This document shows, piece after piece, positions 8,490 to 46,719 of a stretch of 64,000 nt of DNA. Both the position numbers and the translations under genes were made by a program. Where the stretch lies: the NCBI GenBank assembly GCA_964347415.1, contig CAYFYJ010000009.1, positions 7,940 to 71,939 on the forward strand, in the 5' to 3' direction. Each line of letters opens with the position of its first letter. Positions within the stretch are counted from its first letter, which is position 1. The notes beneath the pieces were generated by a model that did not search any database, was not told where the DNA came from, and saw only the letters and a program-made list of their open reading frames with translations. The DNA is from an uncultured archaeon. Lineage in GTDB: Archaea > Aenigmatarchaeota > Aenigmatarchaeia > CG10238-14.

Positions 8490-9150
8490 CAGTTCCATGG
8501 TGCTTTCCTTCTACTGCTCTTATTATTTCTTCAGGATCATTACCATCAATAAAAATAGTCTTAATCTTAATTTTGTTAATCAGTTTTGTCGCTTTTAAAT
8601 CAAACAATCTATATTCTCCTGGTGTTTGGGGGTTTTGTAAGATGATTTTTAAGAATGCATCATGAGTTAATTTATCATATTTCTTGGCATTTGAATCTAT
8701 ATCAGGATCGGTCGAATAAACCCCGTCTATGTCCGAGGCTTTGATGAGTAAATCGGCCTTGACCGCCTCAGCAAAAAGAGCAGCATCATATCCTGTAGAA
8801 CAACCAGGCAAGTTACCACCACAAACTATTATCTTATCATTAAAGTTCTTCTTGACTTGTCCTGCGGTCCTTAAACTCAGCTGATGGGCATCTTTACCTA
8901 AGGCAGCGATCAAAGTGAAAGCATTCAGATGACTTGATTCTATACCGACCCAATCTTGTACGATAATATCTCCACCTACTCTTTTAACAACGTCTCTGTA
9001 TTGTCTACAAACTCTTCCACCGCCACAAACTACTACTAATTTATGACCTTTCTTCTTCAACTTCTTCAAGACATCAGCATACTTCTTGAAGTTTTCAGGA
9101 GTCAATTCTCTCGTCAGCAATGAGCCGCCCAATGAAATTACAATTTTCAT
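8479..9150 (-). CDS. pyrH: UMP kinase, archaeal type
   Basis: MKIVISLGGS.., VVCGGG, amino-acid-kinase fold of ~223 aa. The 3' end overlaps nth convergently by 11 nt. Confidence 0.9.
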   Translation of the reverse strand: MKIVISLGGSLLTRELTPENFKKYADVLKKLKKKGHKLVVVCGGGRVCRQYRDVVKRVGGDIIVQDWVGIESSHLNAFTLIAALGKDAHQLSLRTAGQVKKNFNDKIIVCGGNLPGCSTGYDAALFAEAVKADLLIKASDIDGVYSTDPDIDSNAKKYDKLTHDAFLKIILQNPQTPGEYRLFDLKATKLINKIKIKTIFIDGNDPEEIIRAVEGKHHGTVIS

Positions 9151-10796
9151 TCTATCATCTTTCCTTTACCGTATGGTATAATTTTTGTTATTCTTTCTAA
9201 TTGAACTTTAGTTTTTAATTTCTTTTGTATTTTTTTGGCTATTTCATTGGCTGGTAAATCTCCTGGGACTACGATAGCATATCTTTTGACTTCGCTTTTA
9301 ACCATATCTTCAGGACCGAAAATAACTTCATTATCTTTAACCCCGACAACAACTTTAACAGGAATTCTTCTGATCCAATTCCTTTTGTCGTATATCATGA
9401 ACGAACCTGTAGGTAAGCCACCCTCTTTTTTGACTTGATCAGGTTTAACATAATAAACATCCACTGCAGCAATCCCAACCTTCCATGCCTTTGAATAACT
9501 CCCACAGAATTCAGCTGCTTCTTTAATGCTTTGTTTAGGAACTTGTTTCTTCTTTAGATTTTTTATTAACACAAAGGGGGAGCCAGTGATATCAGTATGG
9601 AATACTAAATCTGAATCTTTCATGTGTTTTCTTATCAATTGTTCGTTTGTCTGGGCATCCTTCCCGCCAACGAGTAGAAATCCATCAGAAGACTTTATCC
9701 ATCTAAACTTATCGTACCATTCCTTTTTCCTTTCTTTAGGCTTTGTTTTTTTGACCTTTACTAATTTCTCTTTTTCTAACTCTTTCATGGCTTTGAGCAA
9801 ACCTTCAATTTTTCTCTTAGCTTTCTTGGCCTTTTCAAAATAAATTTCTGCATTCTTTTGGACTGTTTTTTTAGGTTCAACATCTATCGTTAAACCACGA
9901 ATAGTAATTTTTTTCACGTAGGAATCGAGTTTTTTCTTGACTTCTTCATAATTTTCATACAGTAATTTTCCAATCTTCCTGTACTCTATTTCTTTTTGTC
10001 GCCATTTCTTCAAGGCCTCATCTTGATGTTTTTTAATCTTTTCTAACTTCTCTTTAACTTTACCAACTTCCTTTCCGGTTTTAAACTCCTTTTCAAATTC
10101 TTTTATTAAACATTCATTGACATCTCTTAATTCCTTGAATTCTAAGTGGATGTGGTCGATGAAAGAGTATAATCTTGATGTACCAATCTTTTTAGATTTT
10201 TTATCGATCTTGAGTTTCTTACAGATTTTCTCGGCCATTTCTCCGCCGAAACCGAAATCTACTGCTAAGACTCTAACTGCCTCCTTACTCCTAAAATATT
10301 TTTTGAATTCTAGTTGGTTTAATAGAAAGGGATTAACTCTAGGAGGTGGGTACTTGTATACAATCTTTGGTTTTATTGTTCTGTCTTTCCATGATCTCAT
10401 TCTCAAGGCTATGATGATTCTCTTATTTGGCATTTCAGCGAGTATTATATTGCCGTTACCGAATAACTCTAAGATCAACAAGTGATTTTCAGTCTCTATC
10501 TCAACAATTCTGTCAAAGCTGTGCTGCCTTATATCTTGGATGTTTTGACCAGTCAAATATTTTCTAAGGATTTGTCCTAGGTTTGTTAACAATCCGGCCT
10601 CATAACTTTTGTCTGAAATGAAGAACGTTTCATTCGATAAAATGAGATAATTACGTTTTTTTTGTTTGTAAATTTCAAAACAAAATACATTCTTAGAAAT
10701 CTGCTTAACTTTCTGAATCTTTGAACTGATCAAATCTTTTTTTAATTTTTCTACTTGAAATAAGATCTTCAAACTGTTTATTTCTTTCATATTCAT
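9147..10796 (-). CDS. NFACT-family protein (Rqc2/RqcH/FbpA homolog, ribosome quality control)
   Basis: 549 aa. NFACT-N-like N-terminus, long K/E coiled coil, NFACT-R/DUF814-like block (WIKSSDGFLLVGGKDAQTNEQL, HTDITGSPFVLIK). Its stop overlaps the pyrH start (ATGA). Confidence 0.8.
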   Translation of the reverse strand: MNMKEINSLKILFQVEKLKKDLISSKIQKVKQISKNVFCFEIYKQKKRNYLILSNETFFISDKSYEAGLLTNLGQILRKYLTGQNIQDIRQHSFDRIVEIETENHLLILELFGNGNIILAEMPNKRIIIALRMRSWKDRTIKPKIVYKYPPPRVNPFLLNQLEFKKYFRSKEAVRVLAVDFGFGGEMAEKICKKLKIDKKSKKIGTSRLYSFIDHIHLEFKELRDVNECLIKEFEKEFKTGKEVGKVKEKLEKIKKHQDEALKKWRQKEIEYRKIGKLLYENYEEVKKKLDSYVKKITIRGLTIDVEPKKTVQKNAEIYFEKAKKAKRKIEGLLKAMKELEKEKLVKVKKTKPKERKKEWYDKFRWIKSSDGFLLVGGKDAQTNEQLIRKHMKDSDLVFHTDITGSPFVLIKNLKKKQVPKQSIKEAAEFCGSYSKAWKVGIAAVDVYYVKPDQVKKEGGLPTGSFMIYDKRNWIRRIPVKVVVGVKDNEVIFGPEDMVKSEVKRYAIVVPGDLPANEIAKKIQKKLKTKVQLERITKIIPYGKGKMIE

Positions 10797-29977: not shown

Positions 29978-32317
29978 GTGGTTTTGGTGAATTTTAGTCC
30001 GAAGATTAAAGAGAAGAGATGGAACCCAGAACTAGAAAAGAGGATAAGAAAGAGATGGGATAAGGAGAAAATTTACGCTTTCAACAAAAACAGTAAGAAA
30101 AAAATATTCACGATCGATACACCACCACCTTATCCTTCCGGAAGGCCTTGGCACATTGGTGCAGCAGCACATTATTCCCAGATAGATATGATTGCTAGAA
30201 CAGCTAGAATGATGGGATTTGAAGTCTTCTTTCCAATCGGCATAGACAGAAACGGATTACCTGTCGAATGCTACACAGAAAAAAAATATAGAATTTCTAT
30301 ACATGAAACTCCCAGAAAAAAATTCATAGAATTTTGTACCCATGCTTTGGACGATTTAGAGGCAGAGATGATACAGATAATGAAAATGATGGGCCTCAGT
30401 GGAGATTTTAACAATCATTATCGGACAGATTCAAAGGAATACAGAACTTTAACACAATCAACTTTCATCAATCTCTGGAACCGAGGTTTAATCTATGAAG
30501 CAACGAGACCGAACAACTACTGTATAGATTGTGGTACGACTATTGCTGATGCAGAAGTTGAATATGAGGAATTACCGACGGAATTAATCTACATCAAATT
30601 CAAGATCAAAGAAACTGGTAAACATTTCATAATAGCGACGGGTAGACCTGAATTTCTTTGTTCCTGTCAGGCCATACTCTTCAACCCGAAAGATGAAAGA
30701 TATAAGGATTTAGAAGGAAAGCATGCAATCATCCCAATTTTTGGTAGAGAAGTTCCAATAATTCCTCATCCCTATGTCAACCCCGAGTTCGGGACTGGGA
30801 TAGAAATGGTCTGTTCTTATGGGGACTACGCAGATGTCAGGTTGTTCAGAGAATTGAAATTAAAGGAAATCATAGCAATAACTCCTGGAGGTAAGATGAG
30901 CAAGAATACAGGAAAATATACTGGTTTGTCTATGGAAGAGGCGAGGAAGAGGATAATAGAAGATATTGAAAGGATGGGATTAATAGAAAAGAGGGAGAAA
31001 GCTACACATAGGACTCCGATGTGTCCTAGGAGTAAAACCCCGATTGAAATCATACCGATGAAAGAGTATTATCTGAAGCAGTTGGATTTTATACCTGAAC
31101 TCAAGAAGATTGCAAAGAAGATGAAATTCTTCCCTGACAGACACAGACAAATCTTACTCGATTGGATAAACTCTCTTAGTATCGATTGGCCGATATCGAG
31201 AAGAAGATATTATGGAACCGAGATACCGATTTGGTATTGTAAGGAGTGTGGAAAAGCATGTCTACCAAAACCAGGGAAATACTACAAACCGTGGAAAGAT
31301 AAACCACCGTTCAAGGAATGTCCATATTGTAAATCAGATAAAGGTTTTGAAGGTGAGACCAGAACTTTTGACACATGGATGGATTCGAGCATCTCACCAC
31401 TTTTTATCTCCCATTATCAGAAAGATGATAATTTCTTCAAGAAGACCTACCCGTCTGGAATCAGACCTCAAGCTAAAGATATCATAAGAACTTGGTTGCA
31501 CTATACGATTTTAAGATGTTATCAGTTGACGAAGAAACCTGCGTTTGAAAGAGCATGGATAATGGGGTATGGAGTTGACGAAGAAGGAAAAAGGATGAGT
31601 AAATCTAAAGGAAATGTTGTCGACCCCATTCCAATCCTTGAAAAATATGGTGGGGATATTTTCAGGTTTTGGAATGCTGCTGAAGCCGGGTTAGGTTCGG
31701 ATTTCAGATATTCGCACGATAGGATAGAGGGTTCATCAAAATTCTTAACAAAGTTATGGAATATCTCTAGATTCATCTCTATGTTTCCAGAACCGAAAAA
31801 GGCAGAATTAACAGCAACAGACAAATGGATATTATCTGAATTGAATGAACTCATCAAGAAATGTAAGAAAGGTTATGATAACTTTGATTTCTTCATACCT
31901 GCTAATGCGATAAGAGAATTTACTTGGAATCTGTTCGCTCCACATTACATTGAGATGATCAAGTCTAGGGCGTACGGTGAGGGATTTAGTAAAAATGAGC
32001 AGAAGGCGGCTTGGTATGCTCTTCATCTTGTTTTAAAGAACCTACTCAGGTTGTTTGCGCCCATTGCTCCTTATATGACCGACTATATCTGGAGAGAATT
32101 GTACGGAAAAAAAAGCATACACAAAGAGTTATTCCCAAGACCAGAATGGAAATTTAGGTTGGAAAAACTGACAGAAGCGGTAATAGACTTCAACATGAAG
32201 ATATGGAAATCAAAAAAAGACAAGGGGTTAAGTTTAAAATCTGAGATAAAAGTTAAAATCCCCAATAATTTGAAGCCATTTAGGAAAGATTTGAAGAAAA
32301 TGCATAATTTATGCTAG
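29978..32317 (+). CDS. valS: Valyl-tRNA synthetase
   Basis: 779 aa, class Ia. IDTPPPYPSGRPWHIGA (HIGH-like), DWPISRRRYYGTEIPIWYC, RMSKSKGNVV (KMSKS). The exact start is uncertain (GTG 29978 or the downstream GTG at 29987). Confidence 0.85.
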   Translation: MVLVNFSPKIKEKRWNPELEKRIRKRWDKEKIYAFNKNSKKKIFTIDTPPPYPSGRPWHIGAAAHYSQIDMIARTARMMGFEVFFPIGIDRNGLPVECYTEKKYRISIHETPRKKFIEFCTHALDDLEAEMIQIMKMMGLSGDFNNHYRTDSKEYRTLTQSTFINLWNRGLIYEATRPNNYCIDCGTTIADAEVEYEELPTELIYIKFKIKETGKHFIIATGRPEFLCSCQAILFNPKDERYKDLEGKHAIIPIFGREVPIIPHPYVNPEFGTGIEMVCSYGDYADVRLFRELKLKEIIAITPGGKMSKNTGKYTGLSMEEARKRIIEDIERMGLIEKREKATHRTPMCPRSKTPIEIIPMKEYYLKQLDFIPELKKIAKKMKFFPDRHRQILLDWINSLSIDWPISRRRYYGTEIPIWYCKECGKACLPKPGKYYKPWKDKPPFKECPYCKSDKGFEGETRTFDTWMDSSISPLFISHYQKDDNFFKKTYPSGIRPQAKDIIRTWLHYTILRCYQLTKKPAFERAWIMGYGVDEEGKRMSKSKGNVVDPIPILEKYGGDIFRFWNAAEAGLGSDFRYSHDRIEGSSKFLTKLWNISRFISMFPEPKKAELTATDKWILSELNELIKKCKKGYDNFDFFIPANAIREFTWNLFAPHYIEMIKSRAYGEGFSKNEQKAAWYALHLVLKNLLRLFAPIAPYMTDYIWRELYGKKSIHKELFPRPEWKFRLEKLTEAVIDFNMKIWKSKKDKGLSLKSEIKVKIPNNLKPFRKDLKKMHNLC

Positions 32318-33808: not shown

Positions 33809-33927
33809 CAGGGTTCAAAGGACTTCAAACAGAAACGCTTAAATAAACGTAGTTATTAGTACAAAAAAAGAAATTATAATTAGGGTGAATAGTATTTAAC
33901 ACAGAATCTTCGGTTAAACTTAGGAAA

Positions 33928-35100
33928 TTGTTAAAGCTATTAGGAACTTTCAAAGGAAGACACACTGAACTTATCTCTTTGTACATTCCTTCTGGTCACA
34001 ACATTCAAGACATCATGAACATGCTTAAACAGGAGTATGCATTGACGCAGAATGTTAAATCGAGGGCAACAAGACACAATGTTCTCGACGCTCTTGAAAA
34101 GACAATGAACCATTTACGTTTATTCAAGAAAACACCGCCAAACGGTTTAGTGATATTCTGCGGCAATATCTCAAAAAAAGAAGGTCAACCTGACATCAAA
34201 CTCTGGTCTGTAGAACCACCACAGCCTTTGGCTCAGAAAATTTATTGGTGCGATCAAAAATTCGTTCTAGATCCATTGAAAGAGATGGTAAGAGAGAAAG
34301 AAGTTTATGGTCTGATTGTAATAGATACTGGCGGTTCTGATGTTGGTTTCTTGAAGGGAAAGAAAGTATTGATAGAAAAACACATAGATTCTCTAGTACC
34401 AGGAAAAACGAGTAAAGGTGGTTGGAGCCAGCAACGTTATGCCAGAATACGTGAAGAAGCCAAGAATGAGCATCTGAAGAAGACAGGTGAGATTGCAACA
34501 AAAATATTCAAAGGGGAGAAATATTTGAAAGGTGTGATAATCGGTGGTCCTGGCCCTTTAAAGGAAAAATTTAAAGGGGGCGAATACTTAGATTACCAGT
34601 TGAGGAAGAAGGTTTTGGGGGTTGTTGATACAAGTTATACTGGTATTCAAGGACTACAAGAAATCGTTCAAAGAGGGGAATCGTTAATACAAGAGGCGTC
34701 AGCAGTTAGGGAGAGGGCTATAATGCAAGGGTTCTTCGAACATCTAAAGAAAGATGACGGTTTATCCATCTATGGTCTGGAAGAAGTTAAATCTGCTCTG
34801 GATTATGGTGCTGTTAAGACTTTGTTGATATCGGAAGAGTATGACTGGGTTAGGACTGAGCTAACTTGTCAATGTGGTAATAAAATCGAGAAAGACATTA
34901 AACCTGGTTCTGTCCAAAAATGTCCGAAATGCAAGAGCGAGATGAAAATCGAGGGAGAAAAGGAATTAATCGATGTATTATCAGAGCAGGCGAAAGGCCT
35001 TGGGTCTGAGGTGGAAATAATATCAGTAGACTCCAGAGAAGGCGAGCAATTTAAAGAAATTGGCGGGATTGGAGCTGTTTTAAGATATAAATTAAGCTAA
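33928..35100 (+). CDS. prf1: Peptide chain release factor aRF1 (atypical: GGW instead of GGQ, NVKS instead of NIKS)
   Basis: GRHTELISLYIP, TQNVKSRATR, YWCDQKF (YxCxxxF), KGGWSQQRYARIRE, Zn-ribbon insert CQCG..CPKC, C-terminal GGIGAVLRYKL. The frame is open from 33889, so the true start may lie upstream of the TTG at 33928. Confidence 0.85.
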   Translation: MLKLLGTFKGRHTELISLYIPSGHNIQDIMNMLKQEYALTQNVKSRATRHNVLDALEKTMNHLRLFKKTPPNGLVIFCGNISKKEGQPDIKLWSVEPPQPLAQKIYWCDQKFVLDPLKEMVREKEVYGLIVIDTGGSDVGFLKGKKVLIEKHIDSLVPGKTSKGGWSQQRYARIREEAKNEHLKKTGEIATKIFKGEKYLKGVIIGGPGPLKEKFKGGEYLDYQLRKKVLGVVDTSYTGIQGLQEIVQRGESLIQEASAVRERAIMQGFFEHLKKDDGLSIYGLEEVKSALDYGAVKTLLISEEYDWVRTELTCQCGNKIEKDIKPGSVQKCPKCKSEMKIEGEKELIDVLSEQAKGLGSEVEIISVDSREGEQFKEIGGIGAVLRYKLS

Positions 35101-35439
35101 AAATCTTGCTTCATCAATCATTTTTATTTGTTTATCTAACCATTCTAGGTACTTGTATTTATTGATAGACGAGAAGTCTCTTTTATTAACCTTAGAATCG
35201 TAAATTGCTGATCGGAAATACGCACCTTTCAATTCTTGAAGTATTTCTAATGGGTGTTTATTTGTTATTGTTCCATAAATTCTTGCAAATTTTCCATAGA
35301 ACTCAGGTGTTATTGGTGGTAATCCACATTCTAGATTATACTGAAGAAGCTTGAGGTCGATAGATTCTTCTATGGGGATTTCTACCCCTTCATCAACAAT
35401 TTCCAGATAAAGTTCGGATTCCTCTGGTAATTGCATCAT
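35092..35439 (-). CDS. Hypothetical protein (115 aa)
   Basis: Clean ORF with an acidic N-terminus and no recognisable motif. Overlaps the aRF1 3' end convergently by 9 nt. Confidence 0.45.
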   Translation of the reverse strand: MMQLPEESELYLEIVDEGVEIPIEESIDLKLLQYNLECGLPPITPEFYGKFARIYGTITNKHPLEILQELKGAYFRSAIYDSKVNKRDFSSINKYKYLEWLDKQIKMIDEARFLA

Positions 35440-35600: not shown

Positions 35601-36575
35601 TTGAGCAAAATGCAAGAAAAGAGTCTATATATAATACTTTTCAAAGAAACCCATCCTTCCTTTCTAGAGAGTATGGGGATGTTAGAAGGGGAAGAAGGAT
35701 TTTATTCGATAACAAAAAAAGAAATTGCTGATGAGATTAGAAGAAGAAAAATAAATCGTATGGACAGATATGTATCAACCGTTTTTAAAGAAGGTAACCC
35801 TCCATCTTATCTTTTGAAGTTATGCTCACCAGAAGCTGCAGAAAGAAAGATAGAAGAAGATTTAGTTGCTAGACAGGCAGAAAAACTTGGGATTAATGTA
35901 GTCTATCTTGATGATGGGTTTGAGAATGTTAATCCCTATGCAAAAATTGTCAAGAAATTAAGTGATCAAATATCTTTGTACAGAGAAATGATACAGCAAA
36001 TTCAAGAAAAACGGGGATACCTGAGAGGCAAATTAAAAGAATGTCAGAAGGAAATAAGGGAATTGCCTCAAAACTCTGAGGAACAAAAGAAATTATCAAA
36101 GAAGATTGGTCATATCGCTAATAAAATTATTGCAACTTACGCTTACAACGATCCCACAATAGATTCATGTTATTATCCTCTCGATGTTTTCTCACAAAAA
36201 TATCGTGTAGCTATACCAGGAGAAGAAATGTTAGTCGCAGAATCCGCAAGAAAGTTCAATTCTGCTATAGAAATTATAATGAGTGCTAGATACCAGAAAG
36301 GGAGAGAGGATTTTTGGATGGATAAGTTTGAAAAGAAAGTAGAAAATTTACCACTAGGGTCAAAAGTAAACGTTTTTGTGGGGGCAGGACATATAGATGG
36401 TTTAACTGTAAAGGGATTTGATTTCAATTGGTTTGATTTACAAAGGAATCGGGAATTGAATGAAGTTATGGGGCATTTTGGGAAAAAACTGGAAGAAAAA
36501 TTCGGAAAATTCGATGAGATCGATTTGACAAAAGAAACGATTAAAGAAGAATTATTGAAGAAAAGATTGAAATAG
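35601..36575 (+). CDS. Hypothetical protein, possibly a distant TraB/PrgY/GumN-like fold
   Basis: 324 aa. C-terminal SKVNVFVGAGHIDGL resembles the VVGAGHxxG motif of the TraB family, and the middle is coiled coil. The assignment is weak. Confidence 0.45.
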   Translation: MSKMQEKSLYIILFKETHPSFLESMGMLEGEEGFYSITKKEIADEIRRRKINRMDRYVSTVFKEGNPPSYLLKLCSPEAAERKIEEDLVARQAEKLGINVVYLDDGFENVNPYAKIVKKLSDQISLYREMIQQIQEKRGYLRGKLKECQKEIRELPQNSEEQKKLSKKIGHIANKIIATYAYNDPTIDSCYYPLDVFSQKYRVAIPGEEMLVAESARKFNSAIEIIMSARYQKGREDFWMDKFEKKVENLPLGSKVNVFVGAGHIDGLTVKGFDFNWFDLQRNRELNEVMGHFGKKLEEKFGKFDEIDLTKETIKEELLKKRLK

Positions 36576-46465: not shown

Positions 46466-46489
46466 CTTAACTAGATTATTTATTTAAGT

Positions 46490-46631
46490 GCCGGGATGGC
46501 AGAATCTGGTTAATGCGCTCGGCTCGAGCGCTCGATGATGAACCCTGAGGTATCTGATAAGTGATGATACAATGGAGATCAGAGAAACCGAGTGCCCTTT
46601 GGGCTTGTGAGTTCAAATCTCACTCCCGGCG
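46490..46631 (+). tRNA. tRNA-Ser (anticodon CGA) with a 58-nt intron at the canonical 37/38 site
   Basis: Hand-folded. Acceptor GCCGGGA/TCCCGGC, G73, 3-bp D stem GCA/TGC, anticodon stem CTCGG/CCGAG, loop CU-CGA-G[intron 46529-46586]A, long variable arm GCCC-TTT-GGGC, T arm GTGAG-TTCAAAT-CTCAC. The mature length is 84 nt. Confidence 0.85.
46529..46586 (+). ncRNA. Box C/D sRNA-like element embedded in the tRNA-Ser intron
   Basis: C AUGAUGA (46535-41), 12 nt, D' CUGA (46554-57), UAA, C' GUGAUGA (46561-67), 12 nt, D-like CAGA (46580-83). Confidence 0.6.
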
Positions 46632-46645
46632 TCATTAATGGATGA

Positions 46646-46719
46646 GCGTCAATGGTCCAGCCTGGTTAAGACTCGAGCTTCCCAAGCTTGCAACGCGGGT
46701 TCGAATCCCGCTTGGCGCA
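46646..46719 (+). tRNA. tRNA-Gly (anticodon CCC)
   Basis: Hand-folded. Acceptor GCGTCAA/TTGGCGC (one G:U), anticodon stem CGAGC/GCTTG with loop UU-CCC-AA, T arm GCGGG-TTCGAAT-CCCGC, A73. Confidence 0.9.

Follow-up and report, generated by a model that had tools for sequence, protein, structure and literature searches.

An archaeal release factor aRF1 with GGW in place of the catalytic GGQ and a recurrent glutamine at the second position downstream

The class I release factor aRF1 encoded in a 64,000-nucleotide stretch of DNA from an uncultured archaeon of the Aenigmatarchaeota (contig CAYFYJ010000009.1; the whole of this stretch is called the window below) carries Gly-Gly-Trp (GGW) in place of the catalytic Gly-Gly-Gln (GGQ) tripeptide, followed by Ser and Gln to give GGWSQ. 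We consider this protein to be, probably, an orthologous and working class I release factor whose catalytic loop was rebuilt from GGQS(A/S) to GGWSQ, with the Gln at +2 compensating for the one that was lost. This +2 Gln, which is absent from the earlier note on this DNA, is the most informative feature of the protein. To our knowledge, the literature describes GGQ as conserved without exception in the class I release factors of Archaea, Bacteria and Eukarya. The motif serves as the textbook case of convergence between the bacterial factors and the archaeo-eukaryotic ones, which are unrelated to them, and what the Gln side chain and its methylation do has been argued over with laboratory mutants for upwards of 20 years.

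The open reading frame (ORF) at 33928..35100 on the forward strand encodes a product containing KTSKGGWSQQRYARIRE, LTQNVKS, YWCDQKF and the C-terminal GGIGAVLRYKL. The Pfam domains eRF1_1, eRF1_2 and eRF1_3 (PF03463, PF03464 and PF03465) all scored above their gathering thresholds, and the NCBIfam model TIGR03676, the aRF1 equivalog, gave 455 bits against a cutoff of 235. The pelota profile TIGR00111 reached 84.5 bits (cutoff 177.65), in a match that spans the M and C domains only. An AlphaFold2 model of the protein had a mean predicted local distance difference test score of 85.7; with this model, Foldseek returned the aRF1 structure 4AF1 as the top match, together with the accommodated eRF1 structures 5LZV and 3JAG, at template modelling scores of 0.70–0.74 (0.74 for the two eRF1 structures). 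The three-domain architecture and fold of eRF1 are thus present, and the assignment of this ORF to aRF1 in the earlier note, which these profile matches and the YWCDQKF and C-terminal motifs bear out, is correct. The GGW and NVKS motifs reported there are likewise real: the codons at 34417–34425 read GGT GGT TGG and are followed by AGC CAG CAA CGT TAT, and NVKS is encoded at 34051–34062 within LTQNVKS. In gapless phmmer alignments, W166 occupies the column of the catalytic Gln of 4AF1 (KGGQSAQRFAR) and 3AGK (MGGQSQRRYER). The GGQ tripeptide, a defining feature of the family, is hence missing from the window protein, while its two Gly residues are kept, as are all other hallmarks of aRF1, namely Ser at +1, Arg at +4 and +7, a NIKS-type loop in the variant form LTQNVKS, the YxCxxxF motif and the GILRY-type motif.

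The earlier note had allowed that close relatives might show CAA or CAG at this codon. No such relative was seen: GGQ occurred in 0 of the 120 nearest protein clusters, which range from 51 to 100% identity and derive from independent assemblies at NCBI, JGI, ENA and Logan. The tripeptide was GGW in 88 of these, GGA in 15, GGM in 13, and GGY and GGF in one each; one of the remaining two has this region deleted and the other has a variant downstream context. The named members of these clusters are Candidatus Aenigmarchaeota or Aenigmatarchaeota. At the DNA level, the codon at the W166 position was TGG in at least 27 genome loci and ATG in at least 14, and it was GCT in a GGA relative (L088). A search of 1.84 billion 50%-identity representatives for aRF1 relatives also placed GGW, GGM or GGF sequences nearest, with GGQ appearing only at about 50% identity or below. 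A close homologue of 328 amino acids (P0086) was without the GGX-loop segment (approximately residues 128–190 of the window protein) and otherwise intact; the gap is due either to misassembly or to a natural allele in which the M-domain tip is deleted.

GTDB species genomes were scanned with two peptide patterns; among the at least 80 matches listed, every assembly contributed one locus, and at least 27 of these loci were GGW, at least 14 GGM and at least 39 GGQ. Genomes labelled Aenigmatarchaeota, at least 40 among the matches listed, comprised at least 18 with W, eight with M and 14 with Q. Closed chromosomes were found among the matches for both states (CP070804.1 for GGW and CP066684.1 for GGQ), and a 791-kb contig (CAYJQI010000001.1) carries GGM. 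A neighbour-joining tree placed the non-Q sequences in one large clade within the phylum. In this clade, GGW occurs widely, GGM makes up a subclade of its own, and GGA, GGF and GGY fall inside the LTQNVKS subclade of the window protein, itself inside GGW. The GGQ-bearing Aenigmatarchaeota were sister or basal to the non-Q clade, and two GGQSA sequences (L056 and L065) fell among GGWSQ ones. The comparison with close relatives that the earlier note had proposed hence revealed a non-Q state common to a large clade. Its suggestion of a lineage-specific tolerated substitution is supported by this clade, with its later changes from W to M, A, F or Y, and the pattern reaches further than that note had suggested, GGW recurring in unrelated archaeal clades, in each case together with Gln at +2.

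Some records bore titles at odds with the aRF1 that they contain. A metagenome-assembled genome (MAG) titled 'uncultured Gammaproteobacteria bacterium' (L036, CAZPZA010000026.1) carries an archaeal GGM aRF1, the aRF1 of a 'Micrarchaeota' MAG (L009, MFRS01000001.1) is 68% identical to the window GGW protein, and that of a 'Thorarchaeota' MAG (L081, JBHLQZ010000122.1) groups with Aenigmatarchaeota-labelled sequences in the neighbour-joining tree. These mismatches look like binning or labelling problems.

The residue at +2, counted from W166 as position 0, was nearly always Gln in the non-Q sequences, giving GG[WMAFY]-S-Q. Among the 50%-identity representatives, Gln was found at +2 in 20/23 non-Q sequences versus 24/114 GGQ sequences (21%), and among all aRF1 sequences collected the counts were 132/136 and 128/309, respectively. 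Tyr at +5 was distributed in a similar manner (19/23 non-Q versus 25/114 GGQ representatives). One further group of eight clusters (P0171 and P0284–P0290) reads TKGGWSQ[KR]RFER, and its nearest relatives, at about 50% identity and with one labelled Diapherotrites, read RAGGQSSVRFER (GGQSS). Another group, of three clusters (P0409, P0423 and P0454), has GGWSQ, and its nearest relatives, at 63–68% identity and in some cases labelled Thermoplasmata, have G[RM]GGQSQRRFER (GGQSQ). Three GGW singletons, P0267, P0202 and P0217, have nearest relatives with GGQSA, GGQSH and GGQSA, respectively. On these sequence comparisons, GGW has had further independent origins in archaea, in no fewer than two other clades of several members each and in several singletons. 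The GGQSA sequence L056 is 60–64% identical to GGWSQ sequences only, which indicates that positions 0 and +2 switch together there too.

When both multi-member non-Q groups were compared with their own GGQ relatives over every column of the protein, residue 168 was the sole convergent difference. The change from Gln to Trp at position 0 and the presence of Gln at +2 were found together in every independent origin (GGQS[A/S] to GGWSQ), and this coupling suggests GGQSQ as a permissive intermediate. Moreover, a Gln codon (CAA or CAG) cannot become the Trp codon TGG in fewer than two nucleotide changes; that this conversion has nevertheless recurred favours selection over drift.

Structural and functional work on the ribosome has shown that the backbone amide of the GGQ Gln is positioned for ester hydrolysis, that the two glycines adopt conformations open to glycine only, that the Gln side chain packs a pocket and selects the water, with methylation improving the packing, and that a bacterial RF2 with a Gln-to-Pro change is inactive without loop distortion (PMC6742477, PMC4691834, PMC5799190). 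In the mechanism that we propose for GGWSQ, the Gly-Gly turn would still bring the backbone NH at position 166 up to the ester that is cleaved in the peptidyl-transferase centre (PTC), and this NH would remain the catalytic group. The packing role of Gln would pass to a large hydrophobic residue (initially W, subsequently M, F, Y or A); the Gln at +2 would supply or buffer the lost amide function, and GGQSQ would be the likely permissive intermediate. The weakest step in this proposal is the particular role given to Q168. Since both Gly residues, Ser at +1 and Arg at +4 and +7 are kept in a gapless loop, unlike in the reported non-catalytic relatives, we infer that the protein is still a peptidyl-tRNA hydrolysis factor.

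Several observations weigh against this interpretation. In the AlphaFold2 model, the two Gly residues lie in a loop and the long helix that follows begins at W166; positions i and i+2 would therefore diverge, and Q168 could not simply fill the old Gln pocket unless the loop were re-registered. Non-Q sequences without Gln at +2 exist (GGASH, GGWSA and GGMSS), so that the displaced Gln is not strictly required; it can be lost secondarily. A yeast Q-to-E allele of the GGQ Gln was not stably propagated even beside wild-type eRF1 (PMC12440015), and the side chain hence clearly matters in other systems. The trees were constructed by neighbour joining only, and the number and direction of the Q–W transitions within Aenigmatarchaeota are not fixed by them. 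Finally, the two-pattern scan could miss a divergent second release factor, although the presence of one in the genome is unlikely.

A bolder possibility, to which we give tentative credence, is that GGWSQ is a second, repeatedly evolved solution to peptide release, in which the Gln is displaced by two residues, as in the GGxSQ loop of VLRF1-type factors, with the PTC pocket filled by an aromatic side chain and with no dependence on a Gln at position 0 or on its N5-methylation. If this were true, the recurrent two-nucleotide origin of the same endpoint in unrelated archaea would imply positive selection, perhaps because reduced genomes have lost the methyltransferase or because an agent directed at the GGQ Gln is evaded in this way.

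All independent origins end at W with Gln at +2, even where the nearest GGQ relatives have Ser or Ala at +2, and this position is the sole convergent column of the protein. Together with the argument for selection over drift drawn from the recurrent change of at least two nucleotides, these findings make it unlikely that the Gln side chain is plainly dispensable, with the backbone amide sufficient for release and the +2 Gln a coincidental or permissive background. Such tolerance would nevertheless be consistent with the drift of position 166 after the first change (W, M, A, F, Y), with the non-Q sequences that lack the +2 Gln, with the occurrence of Gln at +2 in 21% of GGQ representatives already, and with the literature that puts catalysis on the backbone NH.

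We regard it as quite improbable that the GGW aRF1 reads stop codons and does not hydrolyse, handing over to ABCE1 in a Pelota-like manner with release achieved later by Pth2, a VLRF1-type factor or an RqcH-linked pathway. The absence of the catalytic Gln would be in line with such a route, given that eRF1-superfamily families without this Gln are considered inactive (PMC6514570); however, the inactive Dom34 and baeRF families are reported to have lost loop conservation and length constraint (PMC6514570, PMC2613156), whereas both Gly residues, Ser at +1 and Arg at +4 and +7 are invariant here and the loop aligns without gaps with solved aRF1. An archaeal RqcH/NFACT ribosome-rescue protein is encoded in the window (9147–10796, reverse strand; NF041120, 430 bits against a cutoff of 400; ending in TGA), and bears on this post-splitting release. 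On the other hand, routing of every protein through rescue would be costly, and no sign of an extra hydrolase was found in the data examined.

The positional and copy-number data bear on whether a canonical GGQ aRF1 elsewhere in the genome terminates translation while the GGW protein is a specialized paralogue, a proposal that appears highly improbable to us. When the neighbours of aRF1 were clustered across 85 loci, a class I aminoacyl-tRNA synthetase gene, which is valS in the window, lay upstream in 20 GGQ and 22 non-Q loci, and a TatD-family gene lay downstream in 17 GGQ and 12 non-Q loci. This valS-aRF1-tatD context, common to the GGQ loci of the sister lineages and to the non-Q loci, places the non-Q gene at the ancestral aRF1 locus. 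The ratio of nonsynonymous to synonymous substitution rates (dN/dS) between the window gene and its relatives was 0.042 (dS 0.80) and 0.058–0.069, demonstrating strong purifying selection, and the 455-bit match as aRF1 equivalog likewise speaks against a paralogue. Among the at least 80 matches listed, each from a different assembly, no genome had a second aRF1 locus by the two peptide patterns, and no GGQ locus stood beside a non-Q one in the at least 41 non-Q genomes among the matches listed. The impaired paralogue with a canonical copy elsewhere that the earlier note had raised is therefore not borne out by selection, locus or copy number. In its favour are the nesting of the GGQ sequences L056 and L065 among GGW ones in the neighbour-joining tree, for which no GGW partner locus was found among the matches listed, the restriction of the species-genome scan to two peptide patterns, and the coverage of this genome over 64 kb only. 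Within these 64 kb, phmmer and a hidden Markov model built from the 50%-identity representatives detected no second eRF1 or Pelota-like ORF.

Finally, the sequence error that the earlier note had considered is refuted, and any artefact of sequencing, assembly or the genetic code at the W166 codon is scarcely conceivable, there being nothing beyond prior expectation in its support. The change is carried by over 100 independent clusters drawn from four separate data sources, TGG or ATG recurs in the genome loci as counted above, Trp also occurs in YWCDQKF of the same gene, and the M, A, F and Y alternatives at position 166 exclude a recoded TGG.

Stop codon use was in agreement with ordinary termination at all three codons, as the earlier note had observed. 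The 65 non-overlapping ORFs of the window end in TAA (28), TGA (25) or TAG (12), and profile matches run to the profile end within a few residues of the stop for RqcH (NFACT), TyrRS and acetylornithine aminotransferase (TGA), for SerRS and RtcA (TAG) and for thymidylate kinase (TAA), so that conserved genes of the expected length are terminated by each. A recoded TGG or an alternative code was accordingly rejected, as all three stops end full-length genes and M, A, F and Y variants exist. No suppressor tRNA was found in the window, which encodes tRNA-Ala(CGC), tRNA-Ile(GAT), tRNA-Gly(CCC) and an intron-containing class II tRNA. The last of these (46489–46633, forward strand; Rfam, 43 bits) was missed by ARAGORN at default settings and was identified with the -i option as tRNA-Leu(CAG) with a 50-nucleotide intron; this intron contains the C/D-box-like motifs GATGATGA ... 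CTGA ... GTGATGA ... TCAGA, and tRNA-Gly(CCC) follows directly at 46646–46719.

The recognition loop is in register, with Asn and Lys invariant, and reads LTQNVKS (Ile to Val, and TAS to LTQ). The earlier note had set NVKS beside GGW, and a link between the two did not survive: LTQNVKS or LTENVKS also accompanies GGQ (L041, L044, L047, L049, L051, P0132 and P0134), and both GGW and GGM also occur with TAxNIKS (GGW, for example, with TAQNIKS). Coupling of the motifs is ruled out by this independent assortment. A comparison of identities domain by domain did not clearly point to a recombinant N domain, and, with all three stop codons in use, we treat NVKS as a conservative variant of the recognition loop. 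The features of the gene are summarized in Table 1.

Table 1. Coordinates of the aRF1 gene, its motifs and its upstream neighbour in the window. Invariance refers to the two alignments A1 and A2.
Feature	Position	Strand	Remarks
aRF1 gene	33889..35100	+	stop TAA 35098-35100; start TTG 33928 given by the ORF finder (390 amino acids)
LTQNVKS	34042..34062	+	variant of the TASNIKS stop-codon recognition loop; N42 and K44 invariant (A1, A2)
YWCDQKF	34243..34263	+	YxCxxxF stop-codon recognition motif, intact; Y106, C108 and F112 invariant (A1, A2)
GGT GGT TGG, G164 G165 W166	34417..34425	+	column of the GGQ tripeptide; both Gly invariant (A1, A2)
AGC CAG, S167 Q168	34426..34431	+	Q168 is the Gln at +2, giving GGWSQ
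R170-Y171-A172-R173	34435..34446	+	Arg residues of the post-loop helix; R170 and R173 invariant (A1, A2); Tyr replaces the usual Phe
C314-x-C316 ... C332-x-x-C335	34867..34932	+	four-Cys insertion in the C domain; likely zinc ribbon
GGIGAVLRYKL	35062..35094	+	C-terminal GILRY-type motif (partner GTPase binding); G380, L385 and R386 invariant (A1, A2)
valS (valine-tRNA ligase)	29978..32317	+	upstream neighbour; NF009687, 937 bits; positional-orthology marker

The gene probably starts upstream of the TTG at 33928, at a near-cognate ATA (33889) or GTA (33892). The codons at 33895–33927 (FNTESSVKLRK) look coding because they differ from those of two relatives, L085 and L087, mainly at third positions. 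Past the in-frame TGA at 33886, ATA 33889 and GTA 33892 are the only start candidates (CTG in L085), and a Shine-Dalgarno-like GGTGA element stands just before them. The four Cys residues inserted in the C domain (C314, C316, C332 and C335) are all invariant in alignment A1, and C335 is only nearly so in A2; this insertion is likely a zinc ribbon. The ORFs adjoining aRF1, at 35092–35439 (reverse strand, 115 amino acids) and 35601–36575 (forward strand, 324 amino acids), had no Pfam or NCBIfam match, and in the close relatives L085 and L086 aRF1 is followed by a 231-amino-acid gene without Pfam annotation. In ten other loci (L011, L014, L016, L019, L024, L028–L031 and L042), a PAP2-like phosphatase of about 170 amino acids, with weak undecaprenyl-diphosphatase matches, is encoded on the opposite strand within about 1.7 kb downstream of aRF1. 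These loci belong to the GGW/TAxNIKS subgroup, and the gene was seen at none of the GGQ loci; this probably reflects lineage synteny rather than function.

Inteins were observed in approximately 55 of the 150 50%-identity archaeal aRF1 representatives (P0121–P0270), with lengths of about 130–580 amino acids. The insertion falls precisely at the junction of the tripeptide with the Ser that follows it (GGX|C...HN|S), which corresponds to 34425|34426 in the window, and GGQ, GGW, GGM and GGF alleles are occupied alike. Two GGM sequences among the 120 nearest clusters (P0095 and P0113) also have an intein directly after GGM. The literature searched contained no report on inteins in aRF1.

The GGQ motif has been termed universal in a/eRF1, and Mtq2 has accordingly been termed present in all archaeal phyla (PMC2613156, PMC5372719); surveys also give N-I-K as invariant outside ciliates (PMC2613156). 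Our reading of GGWSQ predicts loss of Mtq2-Trm112, and the GGW lineages may no longer need methylation of the GGQ Gln by this complex. No Mtq2/HemK2 homologue was found in the 64-kb window, a result with no bearing on the whole genome, and a methyltransferase gene beside one GGW locus (L020) scored below the Mtq2 cutoff and is RsmC-like. A HemK2/MTQ2-family methyltransferase (TIGR00537, 195 bits; NTPY for NPPY) is encoded in L001 (3183–3785), L002 (3182–3784) and L060 (1469–2107), roughly 6 kb upstream from the gene for a GGQ-type aRF1; the records of this lineage are labelled Aenigmarchaeota, Aenigmatarchaeota or Nanohaloarchaea. As regards the PTC, no 23S rRNA was found in the window, and a PTC-like motif was absent from the window and 84 loci.

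The full-text literature searched held no relevant report of a GGW or other non-GGQ aRF1, including in Aenigmatarchaeota, DPANN archaea or metagenomes; within this scope, a natural primary release factor without the GGQ Gln and a recurrent GGWSQ motif appear undescribed. Nature has in effect run the Gln-replacement experiment several times, and the non-Q aRF1 proteins offer natural variants that lend themselves directly to release assays and cryo-electron microscopy, with a specific and testable second-site hypothesis in the Gln at +2. They also carry a warning for annotation, in which absence of the Gln is now taken as catalytic inactivity in proteins of the eRF1 superfamily. The window protein should be described as an aRF1 orthologue that departs from one defining feature of its family, and the label of canonical GGQ release factor should be avoided in its annotation.

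Like canonical aRF1 and eRF1 (TIGR03676; 4AF1, 3AGK and 5LZV), the window protein has three domains, a NIKS-type loop, YxCxxxF, the Gly-Gly turn, an Arg-rich helix and a GILRY-type motif, and it shares its genomic locus with the GGQ aRF1 of the sister lineages. It differs from them in that its tripeptide ends in Trp (relatives have M, A, F or Y there), in having Gln at +2 and Tyr for Phe at +5, and in reading NVKS for NIKS. Laboratory Gln mutants of RF1, RF2 and eRF1, in work by Shaw and Green in 2007, Santos in 2013 and Seit-Nebi in 2000/2001, reportedly indicate that release needs the backbone amide, with the side chain serving for packing and for selection of the nucleophile. Such engineered changes are generally deleterious in vivo; GGW, in contrast, is natural, selected, clade-wide and accompanied by a second-site change. 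Pelota/Dom34 belongs to the same superfamily and likewise has no catalytic Gln, but it is without NIKS, YxCxxxF and the GG loop, and its M-domain tip is truncated and poorly conserved (PMC2613156), whereas the window protein keeps all of these. The Vms1-like factors aVLRF1 and acVLRF1 have a catalytic loop of the form GGxSQ, with the catalytic Gln after the Ser, as described by Burroughs and Aravind (PMC6514570). The window GGWSQ fits this pattern, a resemblance of pattern and not a residue-level alignment or family membership; a PF18859 match of 57 bits in the M domain lies beneath the much stronger eRF1_2 match. With NF041024, the acVLRF1 model, the window protein scored 58.8 bits against a cutoff of 125. 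Unlike aVLRF1 and acVLRF1, which are rescue factors without the stop-codon recognition domain of aRF1, it possesses eRF1_1 with a NIKS-type loop.

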